A DNA stretch of 20,122 bases from a virus (lineage: Duplodnaviria > Heunggongvirae > Uroviricota > Caudoviricetes), in IMG/VR virus record IMGVR_UViG_2671181054_000001, positions 1 to 20,122 of that record. One strand, given 5' to 3'. The notes under the pieces were generated by a model, which was not told the origin of the DNA, made no database searches, and worked only from the letters and a program-made list of their open reading frames with translations. Made by a program: the position numbers and the translations under genes. Positions 2,634-10,048 of the stretch are shown here, in pieces. Numbering within the stretch: position 1 is the first letter of the stretch; each line of letters opens with the position of its first letter.

Positions 2634-3377
2634 TTATTCTTGAGTAACACTTAAACTCATCTCATTGAATGCAGCCATCCTGTAACCTGCCGGTGTAACA
2701 CCAAAATAACTCCTGAATACGCTGATAAAATAAGATGTAAAATTATAGCCACACTGAGCAGCGATTCTGTTGATGGCGCAACGAGATTGATTCAACAGCA
2801 TTGCTGCCATTCTCATTCTCTCTGTAAGCAACAACTCACTGAAACAGGTGCCTTCTTCTTTCAGTCTTTTTTTTAACAAACTTTCACTGATACATAACCG
2901 CGAAGACACATCTCTCAGAGTCCAGTTTGCTGCAATGTCCGTACGAAACAATGCACTAAGCCTGTCACTAATATTGCCAATACACGCGGTCAGAAACGAC
3001 GAAAACATTTTCTCTGATGAGAAAAACGCCAGACACGAAAAGGAAAGCATTTCCGCTAAATTGTCCGTATGAATCTTTTCCTCACAAAGATAATCAATCA
3101 GGATGCCCATCAATTCTGCCTTGGGAAAACTCACGCAAAGATATCGTGGTATTTGCCGGACTAAAACTACATCCTGTTTTTCGTCTCCACACAACAGGTA
3201 ACGGATAATTGTCGATTCACTGAGACTTATTCGCCGAAAACATTCCGAAAAGGGCAATAACGATCCAGCTCCCCCCCTGACAAGAAGTGCACTACCACTT
3301 TCAAGAGAGAGCTCTTTTCCTTCAAAGAGCACAACAAACGGGGAATGAACAAAAACAACAGAACAGGCTTCATTCAT
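2634..3377 (-). CDS. AraC-family transcriptional regulator, AppY/EnvY-like (about 248 aa)
   Basis: C-terminal double HTH typical of AraC family (WTLRDVSSRLCISESLLKKRLKEEGTCFSELL...CGYNFTSYFISVFRSYFGVTPAGY). Start chosen at MNEACSVVF (AppY-like N-terminus as recalled) because the longer frame would run through the upstream terminator. Confidence 0.75.
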   Translation of the reverse strand: MNEACSVVFVHSPFVVLFEGKELSLESGSALLVRGGAGSLLPFSECFRRISLSESTIIRYLLCGDEKQDVVLVRQIPRYLCVSFPKAELMGILIDYLCEEKIHTDNLAEMLSFSCLAFFSSEKMFSSFLTACIGNISDRLSALFRTDIAANWTLRDVSSRLCISESLLKKRLKEEGTCFSELLLTERMRMAAMLLNQSRCAINRIAAQCGYNFTSYFISVFRSYFGVTPAGYRMAAFNEMSLSVTQE

Positions 3378-3495: not shown

Positions 3496-3523
3496 ACATA
3501 AAAAACCCGCTCAATGGCGGGTT
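3496..3523 (-). terminator. Rho-independent terminator (minus strand) 85 nt downstream of Q stop; tR'-like
   Basis: Minus-strand RNA AACCCGC-CAUUGA-GCGGGUU followed by UUUAUG; 7-bp stem. Confidence 0.55.
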
Positions 3524-3606
3524 GTATCAAAGTTCATGCGCTTGGTTCACCTCGCGATACAGCTTTGCGAAGCTTAGCAAAATTGAAGCGGTTTATGCGT
3601 AAAAAA

Positions 3607-4149
3607 TCAAGCCGTTTTTTGAGCGAATGATTCTCGCATAGGAATGTATAGCGCATACTCAGCAACGGCCAACCAATTAGCAATTCGCTTTTCGCATGTG
3701 CTAAAACACCACTCTGGGTGTGCATCATTTAGCAATTCAGCCATTTTGCGTTTGGTCATCCCCCGCCCCTCATACCGTTGACGAAGGACGCTAATCAATC
3801 CTGGATGCTCTGCCAGCACCTCACTTATGACCCGATCAATACATAACGCCTCTGCATCAGTACAATGCGCCAGCCAGCTCTTTTGCTTACCGTTAATCAT
3901 ATCCCGCAAAAAAGCCTCAAGTTCAGACTTGTTCAGACCTGCTTTTTTCATCCTCCGGAGCGCCTCGTTAATTGCCGTTTTTGTCAGCTTTTTAGAGGCC
4001 AACAACTGGTTGAACATATTCCCCGTCTTACCGCCGCCAATATACGACCAGCGCCCCCACATGCGCAGTTTTCCCTGAATCCAGACACTTTCCAGCGTGG
4101 TGAGACGAAGGTGTTCCCCGCTTTTGCCTATATTTGTTGGGTAAATCAT
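3607..4149 (-). CDS. Q: Late-gene antitermination protein Q-like (about 180 aa)
   Basis: Position immediately upstream of terminator and lysis cassette; start at MIYPTNIG with GGAGAAAGGAAGG upstream and ATGA overlap with the preceding gene. Family assignment is from position and general resemblance, not verified. Confidence 0.55.
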   Translation of the reverse strand: MIYPTNIGKSGEHLRLTTLESVWIQGKLRMWGRWSYIGGGKTGNMFNQLLASKKLTKTAINEALRRMKKAGLNKSELEAFLRDMINGKQKSWLAHCTDAEALCIDRVISEVLAEHPGLISVLRQRYEGRGMTKRKMAELLNDAHPEWCFSTCEKRIANWLAVAEYALYIPMRESFAQKTA

Positions 4150-4436
4150 AAATAACCTTCCTTTCTCCAGATTTCTTGCGTGCGAAAAACACCTTCTGCA
4201 TGCATCAGGCGTAATTCTTCTTTGGTGTAATCGCTTGTTTTTACCCGCCAGTCGATTAGATCGTGGCATGAGCTACAGGCTATCGCCGCCTGCATATCGT
4301 GTGGTTTTGTCGCTGTTCCGCACGTCCCCGCCAGCCTGTAATGCGCCAGCACAGAGGTTTCGGGATTGTGATTGCAGTAGCCAGGGATTCTGATCTGGCA
4401 CATCTGGCCTTTAGCCGCTTTACGTAAATTCACCAT
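4146..4436 (-). CDS. DUF1364-family nin-region protein (YbcO-like), Cys-rich putative metal-binding nuclease
   Basis: 96 aa; resembles DLP12 YbcO (LRKAA.G..CQ.RIPG.CN.NPETSVLAH.RL.G.CGT.TKP...A.IACS.CH) as recalled; TAATG overlap with upstream gene. Confidence 0.6.
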   Translation of the reverse strand: MVNLRKAAKGQMCQIRIPGYCNHNPETSVLAHYRLAGTCGTATKPHDMQAAIACSSCHDLIDWRVKTSDYTKEELRLMHAEGVFRTQEIWRKEGYL

Positions 4437-5035
4437 TACGCAAACTCCAGTAGTTGTGCGGCCACATTTACAACTTCCTCCTGAGAGGAGAATTTACGGA
4501 ACAGAATCCAGTTCCACAGCATATTCAGTACAGATTTATAAACCTGCTGAAACTCGACTTCGTCCATATTCGCAAACGCGATGGATTTCGCCCGACGCCC
4601 ACGGCTACCATCAGGATAAAAATGCTCTGTGTAAAATCCGGCCTGAATGGTTACCCACTCGCGGAAAGCCTCAAACGACTTTAGCAATGCCGTATCCCGG
4701 GTTCTGCGTGTCGCAACGGTATTCAGATATTGCTCTGCGGCACCACTCAGGGCTGGAGTATGTTCCCGACCTACTGATTCGCACAGGTAATCAACGAAGC
4801 CTGATACCAGTTCTCGTTCTCGAGGCGTGATCGCCCCACCGATCGGAGTCCAGTAATCGAATCCCAGTTGCAGGAGTTTGAAAAAACGCTTGTGGAATGC
4901 ATAGTTACGCACACGCTTAAAGTCTGCGTGTATCCACTCGCCTATTTTGATTTGATGCAGAAAATCGCAACTCTCCGGCGTCGCCGGGAGAAGTAAACCA
5001 GAAGAAGTTTGTTTGACCAGTTGTATATGCGCCAT
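4436..5035 (-). CDS. Phage nin-region protein, possibly DUF1367 family (199 aa)
   Basis: ORF with GGAGA SD 6 nt upstream of ATG; syntenic with YbcO-like gene. DUF assignment is from memory and uncertain. Confidence 0.5.
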   Translation of the reverse strand: MAHIQLVKQTSSGLLLPATPESCDFLHQIKIGEWIHADFKRVRNYAFHKRFFKLLQLGFDYWTPIGGAITPRERELVSGFVDYLCESVGREHTPALSGAAEQYLNTVATRRTRDTALLKSFEAFREWVTIQAGFYTEHFYPDGSRGRRAKSIAFANMDEVEFQQVYKSVLNMLWNWILFRKFSSQEEVVNVAAQLLEFA

Positions 5036-5106
5036 CGTAGTTCTCCGCTGGCGCAGTAGAATGGGTGTTCAGCCCGTTGTGCAGTATACCAGAATTAATA
5101 CCAATA

Positions 5107-5358
5107 CTAACAGGATGCTCTGACTCGCAATTCATCCAGCAGTTTATCATTTCCCATAATGTCACTTAACCTCATCGGTAAAAAAATTGCCTTTCGCCCA
5201 TTACGATACATCATTGATTTTTGGTTTTCAGGGAAGTAATCCATTTCGACTATAACTGACAGGTCATCACGACGTATGACTGCGTATTTGCTACTAAATA
5301 GTTTCTTTATTTTTTCCACGATGCCTCCAAGTTTATAAGTACAAGAGGTTATATCCAC
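5107..5358 (-). CDS. Hypothetical small protein (70-83 aa; start uncertain, possible GTG start with GGAGG)
   Basis: ORF in moderately AT-rich DNA at edge of the island; no family recognised; ATG at 5358 lacks an SD, internal GTG is preceded by GGAGG. Confidence 0.35.
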   Translation of the reverse strand: MDITSCTYKLGGIVEKIKKLFSSKYAVIRRDDLSVIVEMDYFPENQKSMMYRNGRKAIFLPMRLSDIMGNDKLLDELRVRASC

Positions 5359-6207
5359 ATAGAGACAAAAATATTAATCTTAAAAATATTTATTTCACGC
5401 CGTATATTTGTTTGTTTTATGCGCAGGCACAATGACTTTTATTTATTGTTATGCATATAATCAAATAAGTGATTGTTTTTTGCTCTTCAGATTCAGCAGG
5501 CAAAATGCATAAGGGCTGAAAGTGCTCGCATATAATACCTAATTTACTATCACTATATTCTAAGCACTTACCAGGTGATTAGGAACGGAACCCAGTACCG
5601 TGCGAATTTTAATTATGTGCTGGGACCAAACGGTCTGAAATGTCTTCATTGGTGACGATGATTACTCTTACTTTTTGATTTTAATATTCCGGCAATAATT
5701 TTAATAAAAATCTGTTTTAACTCTGCATTTTGCTGATTCTCCGAAGAAACTATCCATCTCTACGAGGAGATCAAATGTCGTTTCAAATCAGTATGTTGAG
5801 TATAAAAATCATGCCATAAATAGAAAACTAATTCGTCTGTATAGCAGTAATATTTCTGAAAATTAGTAGGATACTGTGGTAAAGAAATTCATTTCCAAGT
5901 AATTGGTAAACGCATTTGATTTGATTTTTTGTATGGGCTGTACTGGCTAAATAACATCCGATACTTGCCAGCACTAGCGATTGCTATTGATGAGAACAAT
6001 AGTGGCATCCGGCAAAGCATTTTGTAGGGGGGGTATCAAGCGGTGCTAACGCATTGCGGTAAAAATTCTGTCACACTTGGCGAGCAGGCATAGAGATGAT
6101 CTCATTGAATTGGTTGCAATCACAAAACACTATGCCTGCCTTTTCTATTCGCCCATTGCTGGGGAGTCCACAGCACTACTGCAGCTTTTTAGTACGATGA
6201 ACAGCTA

Positions 6208-8190
6208 TTAAGTAATTTCAGAGGTATCTATCACTTTCTCAGGAGTTGTAGATAACAATTCTTTCATACGCTGATCTTCGGGAGCACGAGAAGACAGGTG
6301 TTCTAAAAACTCACGCCATTGACGCTTTGCATCAGACAGAAGGTCATCCCAAGTTAATGTATACATTTCTTGTTCTCTCAATGTTTTCAGTTTCATATTT
6401 AACGTTGCATTTCTCTTTAAAAAATCATCAGCAACTAGATAACCGGAAACTCGCTTGAATGGACTTCCTGTTGCAGAGTCTAAATAAACTCTGAAAGTAT
6501 TAACATACTCCTCAAAGCGATTGATGTGATCTTTATCTATTTTCAGCCCTGGCCTCATGAATTCAAGTACAAGCAAATGTTCACCACTTGAAAGAACTAA
6601 GTCAACCCTTCCTTTAAAGCTTGGATCGTGTTCAATGTCTGATTCTTTTGCTGCTTCTCTAGCGATATGCTGGACATTTTTCTCAATAGCATAAGTCTCC
6701 CATTTTGGAGCTATCAGCCAAGGATTCTTCGCAATATAGTCTCGAACAGCATTTTCTAATTCTTTAGTGCGTATTCTAGTCTCAAGACCACTTATAGTAT
6801 CAAGCTTAGCTTTAACTGATTCTGCTGTGTGTAAAGCCTGAATTGTATTTGCTTCGATCAATATCTCAAGCAATTTCGTTTCATCCATATCAGGAACGGA
6901 AGCAACGCTTCTTATAAGCTCTTTTAGACGCCCTCCCTCCCATGCAGTGAGGATAGAGTTGCCTATATGCCTAAATTGCTCTGCACCGATTTGTTGGATT
7001 GATGCAATTCGTTTCAAAGCCATTATAACCGTTTTTTTCTCTACACCTAGTTTATCTAGCCTACTTCTGAAATCATCAATTTTACTTTCAATCAGTTTGG
7101 TTTTTTCATCTGCCCGCCGATCTTTCCAGATTTTTAATAATTCGCGAACACGTTTCTGTCCCCACTCTTCTAATTTGGCAAGGTGGTGACTACTCCAATT
7201 CAATCTTTGTCGTTCAGTAGAAATCACATCATCATTAAACTCATCCAAATAATCAGCAATTACAGCCCCTGTCATATATTCAGGACCATTTTGACTTGGC
7301 AACCCTCCAGTCAAGTTAAACATAAACGGCCTTTGTGCTAATTTTTTGTGAGCGTAAATCGAGATACCTTGCAACTCATCATCCTTGATTGTTTCTTTTA
7401 AGAAAAACACTCTCCATTTTATCTCATAACCATCAACGATTTCTTTTCCATACCCCAAACTGTCAATCTCCGTAAGAGAATCAGGTTTTTCATCTACAGT
7501 ATAATCTTTTGGAAAACTATATTCTGCAGTGGCAAGAAAATTTTCGACTGGCATGGGGGTATTATTAATACGAACTAAAAATTCATCGCCGCCAGAATTG
7601 ATCGCAAACCTTCTCGCCATAGATGTAGCAAAAGAAGACTCATTTAACAATCTATTTATTTTCAATGACTTAAGTGTTACTGTTGTTCCATGATTTTCTT
7701 TTTCTAATTCTGAAGGGCCTGTGCGGAAGGTCACATCAATAGCCATACTTTCAGTTTTAACGTAGTCATCTGACGATCTAATCTTATTTATATCCAAAGT
7801 AAAACTAGTTTTTTCACCTGTTTCTTGGCTAGTAGTACAAATTTCTATAATCTCAGCAATACCAAAACCAGCAAACTTTCCGATACCTTTTCTTCCCATT
7901 AAGTCTCGATTGAATAATTTCGACTTCGCTACAGGATTATCTTTCCTTTTATCAAAACCAACCGTAAGAAATTTCTTTTGACATTCTTCAAATGTCATTC
8001 CAATACCATTGTCTTTTATAACAATAGTTCTATTTTCATGCGTGGGTAGTGTAATATTAACTTCGGTTGCATCCGCGTCCCAAGCATTAGAAACCATTTC
8101 AGCTATTGCTGCTGTTGGACTTTGATACATTTGAATACCTAAATGATCAATTATCCTACCATGAAAATTTAGAAATAGTTTATTATCCAT
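6208..8190 (-). CDS. GHKL (Bergerat-fold) ATPase-domain protein, 660 aa, MORC/MutL-like N-terminus with uncharacterised C-terminal region; candidate restriction/defence effector
   Basis: N-terminal motifs AIAEMVSNAWDADATEV (N-box, E-x3-N-A-x-D), IKDNGIGMT (D-x-G-x-G), GRKGIGKFAGFG (G-rich lid). Start ATG has GAGG 6 nt upstream and overlaps the MTase stop by 8 nt. Confidence 0.85.
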   Translation of the reverse strand: MDNKLFLNFHGRIIDHLGIQMYQSPTAAIAEMVSNAWDADATEVNITLPTHENRTIVIKDNGIGMTFEECQKKFLTVGFDKRKDNPVAKSKLFNRDLMGRKGIGKFAGFGIAEIIEICTTSQETGEKTSFTLDINKIRSSDDYVKTESMAIDVTFRTGPSELEKENHGTTVTLKSLKINRLLNESSFATSMARRFAINSGGDEFLVRINNTPMPVENFLATAEYSFPKDYTVDEKPDSLTEIDSLGYGKEIVDGYEIKWRVFFLKETIKDDELQGISIYAHKKLAQRPFMFNLTGGLPSQNGPEYMTGAVIADYLDEFNDDVISTERQRLNWSSHHLAKLEEWGQKRVRELLKIWKDRRADEKTKLIESKIDDFRSRLDKLGVEKKTVIMALKRIASIQQIGAEQFRHIGNSILTAWEGGRLKELIRSVASVPDMDETKLLEILIEANTIQALHTAESVKAKLDTISGLETRIRTKELENAVRDYIAKNPWLIAPKWETYAIEKNVQHIAREAAKESDIEHDPSFKGRVDLVLSSGEHLLVLEFMRPGLKIDKDHINRFEEYVNTFRVYLDSATGSPFKRVSGYLVADDFLKRNATLNMKLKTLREQEMYTLTWDDLLSDAKRQWREFLEHLSSRAPEDQRMKELLSTTPEKVIDTSEIT

Positions 8191-9232
8191 AATCCGCCTC
8201 GTTTTTAGTTATATGTTCTTTGATAAGTTCAGCATGACGCTTAATGAATTCAGGGGGCAATGCATTCCCTATCATCAAAGCAGCCTTGTCTTTACCAAAT
8301 TGAATAGGAAAATAGTAATCACTCGGAAAAGTTTGTAATAATGCAGCCTCTCGAAGAGTTATTGCTCTATCTTGTTCAGGATGTAAAAAACGACCTTTTG
8401 AAGGATTAGTACATCCACTCGTAATAGTTGGAGCTACATCATCCCACCTCATACGACCGTAAACATCGCGAAAACCATTTGGATATCGTTTATGACATGG
8501 CAGCCAATACTCGTAAGGAAGTTGAGAGCGGCTTCCCCCATCCTTAGGAATAAGACTTATAATTTTTTTAACCTTCTCAGTTCTTCTTTCTAATATATTG
8601 TGCAGCGGATCATTGCTATTTTCAGGTCGAGCCAAATGGCCTATTGCATCGCGCACAGTTATTAAATTACTATTTTTTTGAGCACGAGTAAGCTCTCCGT
8701 ATCGCGAAGCAAGTAGTACCATGCGCTTACGTCTTTGTGGCACACCAAATTTACTAGCATCTTCAATTAAAACTGAATTATCATCGATATGATAACCCAA
8801 TTTCTTAAGCTCCGAAGTAAACATGTTTATTCGTTCGTCAAATGCCAAAGCTGGTACATTTTCAACCATTACAACTTTTGGAAAAAAGACTTTAACAAAA
8901 TCTAAAAAATTAAAAATAAGTTCATTTCTCTCATCAAAGACAGCTACTGTTTTATTTTTTGTTCTTAACGAAGAAAATCCTTGACATGGTGGACAACCTG
9001 CCAACAAATCCAGTTCACCTTGCTGAATTTTTAATTGTTTCATTAATTCATCTGGTGATATATTTTTTATATCCCCATTTATTAAGTTAACATCCGGATG
9101 GTTGATTCTATAGGTTTCAGATACAATAGCTTCTTTTTCGATTGCTGATATGACATCAAAGCCAGCCATTTTTAGACCAACTGTCAAACCACCAGCGCCA
9201 CAAAAAAGATCAATTGCTTTCATTTTATGCAT
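8183..9232 (-). CDS. DNA (cytosine-5)-methyltransferase, Dcm-type (349 aa)
   Basis: Canonical m5C MTase motifs: I DLFCGAGG, IV GCPPCQGFS, VI MVENVPAL, VIII QRRKR, X GNALPP. Start could be M1 (9232) or M4 (9223). Confidence 0.9.
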   Translation of the reverse strand: MHKMKAIDLFCGAGGLTVGLKMAGFDVISAIEKEAIVSETYRINHPDVNLINGDIKNISPDELMKQLKIQQGELDLLAGCPPCQGFSSLRTKNKTVAVFDERNELIFNFLDFVKVFFPKVVMVENVPALAFDERINMFTSELKKLGYHIDDNSVLIEDASKFGVPQRRKRMVLLASRYGELTRAQKNSNLITVRDAIGHLARPENSNDPLHNILERRTEKVKKIISLIPKDGGSRSQLPYEYWLPCHKRYPNGFRDVYGRMRWDDVAPTITSGCTNPSKGRFLHPEQDRAITLREAALLQTFPSDYYFPIQFGKDKAALMIGNALPPEFIKRHAELIKEHITKNEADYG

Positions 9233-9268
9233 TCCATTCCATCATGTATACTATGAATCTAATCGAGA

Positions 9269-9297
9269 ATCATATGAAATTGATAGGCTTTTTACAA
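9269..9297 (-). promoter_or_regulatory. Candidate sigma70 promoter for MTase-GHKL operon
   Basis: Minus strand TTGTAA - 17 bp - TATGAT, about 35 nt upstream of the MTase start codon. Confidence 0.3.
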
Positions 9298-9625
9298 TCT
9301 TTATCATCTATTTTTATTGTCTTATGTAATTTTCTTGGTTATTGGTGGAATGTAATCTCATCTGATATCCTATGTCCTAATAGATAGCAATTCTGTATGA
9401 GCTTTTATTGCCCTCATCAGACGCTTCCTTTATGAAGTTGTTCCGAGCAATGCAGCATCGCATTTATCACTTCTTTTATGTGGCTTATGTGTCACGGCGT
9501 TGTTGCCATCAAGGCCAGCGAACATTCCGTGCCTGTCAAACGCCGTGCAAAGCTCGTTAAACGCCCACGTCCGAACTTCGGCAAGGAAGGCATTGGCGCG
9601 GTCAACTCCTGGTAGCCAATCCTGC

Positions 9626-10048
9626 TCACTGCGCCGCCCCCTGAAAATGCCCCTGATAGAATGCCAGCACACGCTGCATAACTTCGCTCTTCCGGCACTC
9701 GCGACAGATTATGTTCATACGCCTGTCATAGCGGCGTATTTCTCCGTCTGGTAATGACCAGATAAGGTCAGGATCAACCACAACCGTTTTTTTCACCTTT
9801 GCCCTGGATAGTTTTTTGCGGGCGTTTTTCCAGTCCTTACGAGCCTGTTCAGAGGGAAATAACCCATAGCCAGAGTTGTATACATCGCCACTGGCAACCA
9901 ACTCTCTGGCAAGAATGCTCATCAGATATCTTGTCGCACCTGTCTTGGCCTCCAGTTGCCTTAACGTCTCGCGCCCACTCTGGCGTACCAGCTCAACAAC
10001 CTGCTCCTTAATTTTTTCACGCTCTTCCTGTGTAAAAACTTTTGCCAT
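9626..10048 (-). CDS. Hypothetical phage protein, possible winged-helix DNA-binding protein (140 aa)
   Basis: Start at MAKVFTQEE with GGAGG 6 nt upstream; C-terminal CRECRK motif; no confident family. Confidence 0.5.
   Translation of the reverse strand: MAKVFTQEEREKIKEQVVELVRQSGRETLRQLEAKTGATRYLMSILARELVASGDVYNSGYGLFPSEQARKDWKNARKKLSRAKVKKTVVVDPDLIWSLPDGEIRRYDRRMNIICRECRKSEVMQRVLAFYQGHFQGAAQ

Follow-up and report, generated by a model that had tools for sequence, protein, structure and literature searches.

A decayed insertion sequence of the IS10 branch very probably fills most of an ORF-free gap beside a putative restriction-modification gene pair in a Rac-like prophage of Escherichia coli

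The locus

The DNA analysed here (hereafter the window) is the 20 122-nucleotide virus record IMGVR_UViG_2671181054_000001, assigned to the Caudoviricetes. It is a Rac-like lambdoid prophage of E. coli: in the RefSeq strain EC12 the same DNA is flanked by ompN/trkG and sieB/kilR. The phage early-right genes are carried by the minus strand of the window. Over roughly positions 5100–9400 the GC content is low (33–41%) compared with that of the surroundings (~50%), and this stretch contains a methyltransferase gene, a gene for a 660-amino-acid (aa) 'ATP-binding protein' and a gap without open reading frames. A first-pass annotation of the sequence had pointed out that no ORF of 60 aa or more is present on either strand in 5359–6207, and this is indeed the case, the longest open run being 53 codons. 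Because the neighbouring small gene (5107–5319, minus strand) begins at 5319 in the RefSeq annotation, the true gap is 5320–6207 (888 bp). It contains 14–20 stop codons per frame and is devoid of any annotation in RefSeq.

The gap is composed of two parts, a phage-backbone spacer (5320–5503) and an insertion-sequence relic (5516–6173), which together leave only 34 + 12 nt of it unaccounted for. The features of the region are as follows.

5320–5503, no strand assigned: conserved intergenic spacer of the phage backbone, ahead of the small gene 5107–5319 (minus), GC 31%
5504–5515, no strand assigned: 12 bp that join the backbone spacer to the inner end of the relic
5516–5625, minus: 3' end of the relic with remains of the transposase C-terminus (~aa 365–399), from local alignment to an intact element
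5590–6091, minus: pseudogene of the transposase N-terminal part (~aa 1–176), from blastn, tblastn and base-level alignment; start codon at 6089–6091
5775–5819, plus: 14-codon ORF behind GAGGAG, antisense to the pseudo-transposase
6027–6033, plus: run of seven G (C7 when read on the transposase strand), at a place where the pseudogene is frameshifted
6084–6139, minus: ancestral leader hairpin of the element, with arms at 6130–6139 and 6084–6093, the 3' arm holding the transposase ATG (6089–6091)
6159–6173, minus: outer (left) terminal inverted repeat of the relic, CTGTGGACTCCCCAG, matching CTGAGGAATCCCCAG at 13 of 15 positions
6174–6207, minus: 34-nt spacer between the stop codon of the endonuclease-like gene and the outer end of the relic
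6208–8190, minus: 'GHKL ATPase' gene, candidate endonuclease of the HgiDII/BbrUII type (NF050001, PF13589)
8183–9232, minus: partner gene, Dcm-type C5-cytosine DNA methyltransferase (TIGR00675, PF00145)

Homology of the gap to IS4-family elements

Several lines of homology make us highly confident that 5516–6173 is a non-functional, internally deleted remnant of an IS4-family element of the IS10 branch, closest to the ISSfl1-like elements of Enterobacteriaceae. The relic is on the minus strand, like the phage early genes, and lies between the stop codon of the methylase/endonuclease cargo pair and the conserved phage backbone. A sensitive blastn search of 5480–6207 against complete E. coli genomes yielded 19 near-identical copies and 638 further E. 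coli records at 60–80% identity, and the matches that were sampled among the latter are annotated as 'IS4 family transposase' genes. Window positions ~5613–6190 are 68–76% identical to annotated IS4-family transposase genes (blastn, E 1e-57 to 1e-67), and copies on plasmids reach 77% identity (E = 1e-74). The best DNA identity reached is this 77%, over part of the relic only, and none of the matches found is the exact parental element. In minus orientation, the homologous stretch takes in ~510 nt from the 5' end of a 399-aa transposase gene and ~110 nt ahead of it. A translated search for a pseudogene had been proposed as a check on the first reading of the gap; with the intact 399-aa transposase as query, tblastn recovers a transposase remnant (E = 1e-20) that runs from Met1 at 6091 (MPARQV*) and crosses stops and frame changes.

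At the base level, the 5' part of the element aligns with the window from 6190 to 5590, and the 3' end aligns separately, from 5625 to 5505, with a score of 55 compared with 22 ± 2.9 in 200 shuffles; a weak collinear tblastn match to transposase aa 376–396 is present in this 3' segment. The junction of a large deletion lies at ~5590–5625, where roughly nucleotides 620–1200 of the element are lost. The relic is 658 bp long, compared with 1312 bp for the intact copy used as a reference (intact copies measure about 1300–1312 bp); it lacks ~600 bp that include most of the catalytic region, as well as smaller stretches of 1, 11 and 36 nt. The pseudogene is interrupted by an in-frame stop at codon 7 and by further stops, and is disrupted by two or more frameshifts and by several deletions of a length not divisible by three; an intact transposase frame, the mark of an autonomous insertion sequence, is absent from the relic.

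The ends of the element can also be placed. The sequence CTGAGGAATCCCCAG, to which the outer repeat at 6159–6173 corresponds, opens eight other copies, each with its own flanking sequence, and the first bases of these same eight copies define the terminal repeat consensus CTGAGGAATCCCC; no second site of this kind is found in the window. The inner terminal repeat (plus strand CTGAAAGTGCTCGC from 5516) is degraded and barely recognisable, as it keeps CTGA and otherwise weak similarity. ISSfl1 shows a perfect 9-bp target duplication at these same ends, whereas the 9-mers that flank the relic, GCAGTAGTG and CCCTTATGC, match at 3 of 9 positions. A target-site duplication is thus not recognisable, a result that, given the extent of decay, weighs neither for nor against a simple insertion. 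No second insertion-sequence end, which would suggest a composite transposon, was found on the far side of the island, and no tandem or dispersed repeat family was found in or around the region, only short chance pairs.

The transposase of an intact relative matches the IS4-family model NF033591 of NCBIfam (E = 8e-103) and Pfam PF01609, and is 71.5% identical in amino acids to that of ISSfl1, compared with 36–38%, over ~90% of the length, to those of IS10A and of the Tn10 IS10 from plasmid R100. Common to the relic and the ISSfl1-like elements (for example those encoding transposases WP_001111620.1 and WP_005064872.1; also ISSfl9) are the terminal repeat CTGAGGAATCCCC, the leader and its hairpin over the start codon, the MPARQV N-terminus and the 3' end, at a DNA identity of 57–77%. 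It differs from them in its length of 658 bp, in the deletion of most of the catalytic region, in a frame broken by stops and frameshifts, in having no recognisable target duplication and in a GC content of 38% compared with 47% in the intact element. The relationship to IS10 of Tn10 is more distant but visible: the two fall within a single branch of the IS4 family, the terminal repeat of the relic family resembles the IS10 end CTGATGAATCCCC, and related copies make 9-bp target duplications.

Decay and distribution of the relic

The substitutions that separate the relic from the intact reference are spread nearly uniformly over codon positions 1, 2 and 3 (45:44:65, p = 0.065), whereas other family copies compared with the same reference show an excess at third positions (for example 19:11:75, p < 1e-5). 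The relic departs from the family at 42 of the 233 sites that are invariant in the eight other copies, and its changes from GC to AT (0.224 per GC site) are more frequent than those from AT to GC (0.096 per AT site). This near-uniformity over codon positions, together with the bias towards AT, points to neutral decay of the relic, and we infer that such decay followed a period in which the element was active.

Of 5426 complete E. coli genomes, the same 19 contain both the relic and the restriction-modification genes, and since these copies are all at least 99% identical, the present arrangement goes back to a single recent spread. Among the carrier genomes there are 9 variable sites in 704 bp of the relic and 14 in 3025 bp of the two restriction-modification genes, that is, a variability per bp 2.8 times higher in the relic (Fisher p = 0.027), although copies that are at least 99% identical allow only a weak comparison of rates. 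The same relic haplotype is found in a metagenome contig that is 94% identical and has a recombined backbone. No copy of the island was found in the phage collection searched.

The leader hairpin

The inverted repeat gcaggcatag/ctatgcctgc to which the first-pass annotation had drawn attention is real, but it lies at 6084–6093 / 6130–6139, one base away from the position first given, and its loop is 36 nt, not 41 nt; its start, 69 nt past the stop codon of the upstream gene, is close to the ~70 nt first proposed. A perfect 10-bp inverted repeat is attained in 7.6% of 500 dinucleotide-preserving shuffles. Of the features that had been noted in the gap, however, it is the only one that is supported by related sequences. 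The relic and the intact copies adopt the same fold (z = −3.0 to −3.7; −36 kcal/mol and z = −3.0 for the relic). Over nine copies the 11-bp helix is 97% paired, with three pairs changed on both sides, whereas sliding the partners as a control brings the pairing down to 32–42%. The hairpin is conserved, with compensatory changes, in the eight copies other than the relic.

IS10 from R100 has an equivalent stem, also with the AUG in the 3' arm, and this region of IS10 (nt 46–115) matches the Rfam RNA-OUT family with 98.8 bits. In both the relic family and IS10 the start codon is located ~95–108 nt from the outer end, and the 5' arm of the stem lies ~40–50 nt upstream of the arm that holds the AUG. 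The hairpin sequences themselves are unrelated, and neither a pIN-like nor a pOUT-like promoter was detected in the relic or in the intact copy. The RNA-OUT model (RF00240, gathering score 41 bits) gave no match in window 5300–6300 at E up to 10, nor in three ISSfl1-like copies at E up to 1. By their placement and shape, the hairpins of the relic and of the ISSfl1-like elements are thus best described as positional and architectural analogues of the RNA-OUT stem, not as members of that RNA family. According to a passage of PMC13181058 that cites Davis, Simons and Kleckner (1985), the translation signals of IS10 are sequestered in RNA structure, and RNA-OUT pairs with the 5' end of RNA-IN (PMC4513863). 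By analogy with IS10, we infer that the hairpin of ISSfl1-like elements serves in start-codon control, and the inverted repeat in the gap would be the element's own translational-control hairpin, which buried the start codon and now stands over a dead gene.

These observations change how the gap can be read. The 'regulatory leader' that had been envisaged is retained only as a fossil: covariation and the shared fold indicate a translational-control hairpin of an insertion sequence, at the head of a gene that is dead. The proposal that the region is simply a degraded copy of a gene with no conserved secondary structure essentially holds as far as the degraded copy is concerned, but not for the structure, as the hairpin is conserved and inherited. 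A small RNA, the other proposal, finds no support: a scan of the whole window at Rfam gathering thresholds gave nothing, and a permissive scan of 5300–6300 gave only a chance-level match to SQ1002 (18.5 bits compared with a threshold of 128) and none to RNA-OUT, while the IS10 control does match.

It is unlikely, although this is the alternative to which we give most weight, that the hairpin module (~6060–6150) is still functional, either as an RNA-OUT-like antisense RNA on the plus strand or, on the minus strand, as a stem-loop in the 3' UTR of the restriction-modification mRNA. Identity to the family majority is 95% in the hairpin segment, compared with 57–80% in the remainder of the relic, and the segment differs at 5 of 57 family-invariant sites, compared with 37 of 176 in the remainder (p = 0.046). 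However, conservation within the family is highest in the leader, so that it would seem better preserved under neutral decay too, and the better preservation of the hairpin may simply reflect this; the 19 carriers, all at least 99% identical, are uninformative about selection. The fold of the relic hairpin is stable, as the energy and z-score given above indicate, but its loop is 11 nt shorter than in the family. Past the stem the plus strand reads CTTTTCTATT, where intact copies have TCTTTTTTT; in the relic this U-tract is interrupted. IS10 has its antisense RNA in the equivalent position, and an RNA-OUT copy encoded in a pathogenicity island of Vibrio is reported to have a proposed function (PMC6601013), which we count in favour of a functional hairpin. 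Against the antisense version, no sigma-70-like plus-strand promoter is present at 6030–6080 in the relic, nor at the equivalent position of the intact copy, and the RNA-OUT model fails to match even under the permissive E-value limit. If the antisense version were nevertheless true, it would damp in trans the transposition of related ISSfl1-family elements in the host; if the stem-loop version were true, it would stabilise or insulate the restriction-modification transcript, in place of the terminator that other prophages have at the junction. We thus favour a hairpin that is a fossil, part of the decayed element.

The putative restriction-modification cassette

The product of the GHKL gene aligns end to end (13–634 of 660 aa) with NF050001, the BbrUII/HgiDII model (E = 2.5e-89), although the score of 300.6 bits falls short of the curated cut-off of 550. 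A GHKL domain is found at the N-terminus of R.HgiDII (PMC2441816), and the gene product is likely to be a restriction endonuclease of the HgiDII/BbrUII type, as predicted from its sequence. In 10 of 11 distant loci that encode a homologue of this endonuclease a methylase gene adjoins it, and in the eleventh it is ~1.6 kb away. The cassette in the window, judged by this gene content, looks like a complete two-gene pair of the HgiDII/BbrUII type.

Two phage contigs carry a pair that is 81–83% identical to that of the window and lacks the relic. In one of them the pair is in a nin-like region, and in the other it lies between the genes for a Q-like antiterminator and a holin, with an intrinsic terminator straight after the endonuclease stop codon. 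Because the relic is missing from these contigs, it does not belong to the ancestral cassette. The pair resembles a self-contained restriction-modification cargo of the HgiDII/BbrUII type, and it occurs in at least three different lambdoid phage slots.

The first-pass annotation had suggested that the gap could be a decayed third gene of the cassette. It is a decayed gene, but blastn and tblastn homology identify it as that of a transposase and not as a partner of the methylase and the GHKL gene. A third cassette gene, such as one for a Vsr mismatch endonuclease or a controller, would not be without precedent, as Vsr is a third partner beside the homologous pair in 5 of the 11 distant loci. 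We nevertheless regard this explanation as very improbable: no Vsr (PF03852) remnant was found in window 5000–9800 with five Vsr proteins as tblastn queries (best E = 0.16), the insertion-sequence homology and the backbone leave only the 34 + 12 nt mentioned above to be explained, and the 81–83% identical cassettes are two-gene units, one of them closed by its terminator right after the endonuclease stop.

The cargo slot and its junction with the backbone

In ~150 other E. coli prophages, whose cargo differs (Hok/Gef, Doc, QueH), the spacer 5320–5503 is 88–93% identical, and the homology to these prophages ends at 5503; this spacer is not derived from the insertion sequence. The cargo slot is bounded by the DUF977 gene and by the small gene that precedes DUF1367, and in other prophages it is occupied by Hok/Gef, Doc, QueH or DUF551. 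It is comparable to a lambdoid moron slot, located between the replication genes and the module of the Q-like antiterminator, and in the window its cargo is the restriction-modification pair with the relic.

In the hok- and doc-carrying prophages a canonical intrinsic terminator (minus strand AAAACCCGCTTCGGCGGGTTTTTT) is found exactly at the point that corresponds to the 5504–5515 junction. This terminator marks the boundary between cargo and backbone in those prophages, whereas in the window the relic is found there instead and an intact terminator is not detectable: a terminator scan found none on the minus strand between the endonuclease stop codon and the next gene. The position of the relic fits an insertion that split the backbone terminator of the hok/doc type. 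On the other side of the relic, the last 17 nt of the 6174–6207 spacer resemble the terminator-like flanks of other insertions of the family. The similarity of the left flank of the relic to the terminator-like flanks of two family copies is significant (P = 0.005–0.014), and that to the backbone terminator of the hok/doc prophages is not (P = 0.53). Rho-dependent termination in the untranslated stretch has no real support, with a C:G ratio of 169:155 on the minus strand.

As a separate observation, several intact members of the family are inserted within very similar terminator-like hairpins or palindromes.

Minor sequence features of the gap

Three further features had been singled out by eye, and none of them (TATAAT, mini-ORF, G7 run) has comparative support. 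The TATAAT at 5531–5536 is exactly as described; it lies inside the degraded inner-repeat region of the relic, and the number of occurrences (2, compared with 1.8 expected from 500 dinucleotide-preserving shuffles) is that of chance. The G7 run exists, one base away from its first placement, at 6027–6033. A run of at least seven G or C is attained in 1.2% of shuffles, a figure that concerns a feature chosen post hoc. The run reads G6 in all five other copies examined, so that its length polymorphism is private to this window, and intact family members lack the run and read ...AAATACCGAC... at this place; the seventh G arose by slippage in this copy alone or reflects a difference in sequencing.

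The 14-codon ORF at 5775–5819 was also correctly read, with GAGGAG, 5 nt and an ATG. That it could be a genuine gene for a micropeptide or leader peptide deserves almost no credence: the Shine-Dalgarno sequence and its spacing are ideal, and the exact pattern is attained in only 1.8% of shuffles, but the pattern was singled out after the fact, the ORF is antisense inside a pseudogene, its Shine-Dalgarno sequence occurs in the relic only, intact elements having none at the corresponding place, no promoter-like site is nearby on the plus strand (the closest are at 5380–5461), and codon 8, Leu in the window, is Met in all five other copies examined, although few sites of the relic vary. We judge this ORF to be a chance product of decay.

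Discussion

In this work we assign an ORF-free stretch of a Rac-like prophage to two sources, a spacer of the phage backbone and, very probably, the remnant of an ISSfl1-like insertion sequence. If this assignment is right, the sole present effect of the relic would be to add ~660 nt of untranslated RNA to the early-right transcript, and this added RNA would separate the restriction-modification genes from the gene module downstream, to which the Q-like antiterminator belongs. The hairpin may be viewed as the fossil of a device of the IS10 type, which would have hidden the transposase start codon in transcripts entering the element from outside; its complementary strand would correspond in position to the stem of the antisense RNA-OUT of IS10. 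The TATAAT, the mini-ORF and the G7 run would be by-products of AT-biased decay and of replication slippage.

The proposed origin accounts for 0.9 kb that carry no annotation in 19 RefSeq E. coli genomes as an ordinary genomic fossil, and with it the candidate small RNA, the micropeptide and the third defence gene can be dropped from consideration. Two points may be of more specialised interest. Several ISSfl1-like copies are located inside terminator-like palindromes, and ISSfl1-like elements carry a covarying hairpin over their start codon, in the same position as the fold-back structure and RNA-OUT stem of IS10.

Backbone spacer and junction terminator

When the whole island region was compared with the phage collection, the only match was a 161-bp stretch of Actinobacillus phage vB_Apl-pPE4 (PP818812.1, 13671-13831), which shares 88.8% identity with window 5320-5480 in the backbone spacer. 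The host genus, Actinobacillus, is unexpected for a match to this spacer. Comparison of a relic-bearing metagenome contig, L034 (OIER01000750.1), with window 3502-6150 shows that recombination has produced a mosaic, its breakpoint lying close to the small gene, because the relic, the spacer and the small gene are about 99% identical in the two sequences, whereas the adjacent DUF1367, DUF1364 and DUF1133 genes of L034 differ from those of the window by 6-14%.

A promoter-like site and an intrinsic terminator are found in or next to the spacer, the terminator in the hok- and doc-carrying prophages L005 and L006:

Window 5432-5461, plus strand: promoter-like site (ATGACT, 18 nt, TATAAT; 10/12 matches)
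L005 5205-5231 and L006 5205-5231, minus strand: strong intrinsic terminator at the cargo/backbone junction, AAAACCCGCTTCGGCGGGTTTTTT

The promoter-like site lies within the conserved spacer, and the hok- and doc-carrying prophages keep both of its hexamers (equivalent positions about 5133-5162 in L005 and L006). Since it faces the junction terminator there, at a distance of about 45-70 nt, a short transcript running from this predicted promoter up to the terminator is conceivable in these prophages. The terminator position corresponds to window 5504 onward. In the window, the plus-strand promoter-like site points into the relic, and no intrinsic terminator is detectable from the endonuclease stop codon (6208) to the next gene (5319), which leaves no evident barrier in a lysogen between transcription of the restriction-modification genes and the Q-like antiterminator module.

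Target sites of ISSfl1-like elements

At three unrelated places the terminator-like hairpins around ISSfl1-like elements are near-identical (AAAACCCGCCGNAGCG...):

L002 (locus with an intact element) 3109-3128: element in terminator-like hairpin
L003 (another family insertion) 2852-2872: element in terminator-like hairpin
L019 (another family insertion) 288-307: element in terminator-like hairpin

The flanks of the ISSfl1 copy in L018 and of the element in L024 place these within small palindromes (CCCTGAAGGG, CCCTTTTAGGG). Insertion into hairpins and palindromes at these five loci suggests that ISSfl1-like elements prefer palindromic or terminator targets, a preference that recalls the symmetric hotspot of IS10.

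Mobility of the methylase-endonuclease pair

The cargo also includes about 400 bp (window 9233-9636) from the methylase start codon to the return of backbone homology at 9637. In one carrier genome, NZ_CP016546.1 (E. coli O177:H21), an ISVsa5/IS10-type element interrupts the island's Dcm methyltransferase gene (region homologous to window 8183-9232); the endonuclease-like gene retains a full-length match to the window, which raises the question of whether restriction stays active there. Related pairs are present in two phage contigs:

L030 2968-5986: methylase-endonuclease pair, 81-83% nucleotide identity, between Q-like antiterminator (DUF1133) and holin genes
L031 2821-5986: methylase-endonuclease pair, 81-83% nucleotide identity, between a DUF1627-like gene and RusA

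As the pair occupies differing slots in other lambdoid phages, it moves among them as a two-gene cargo unit.
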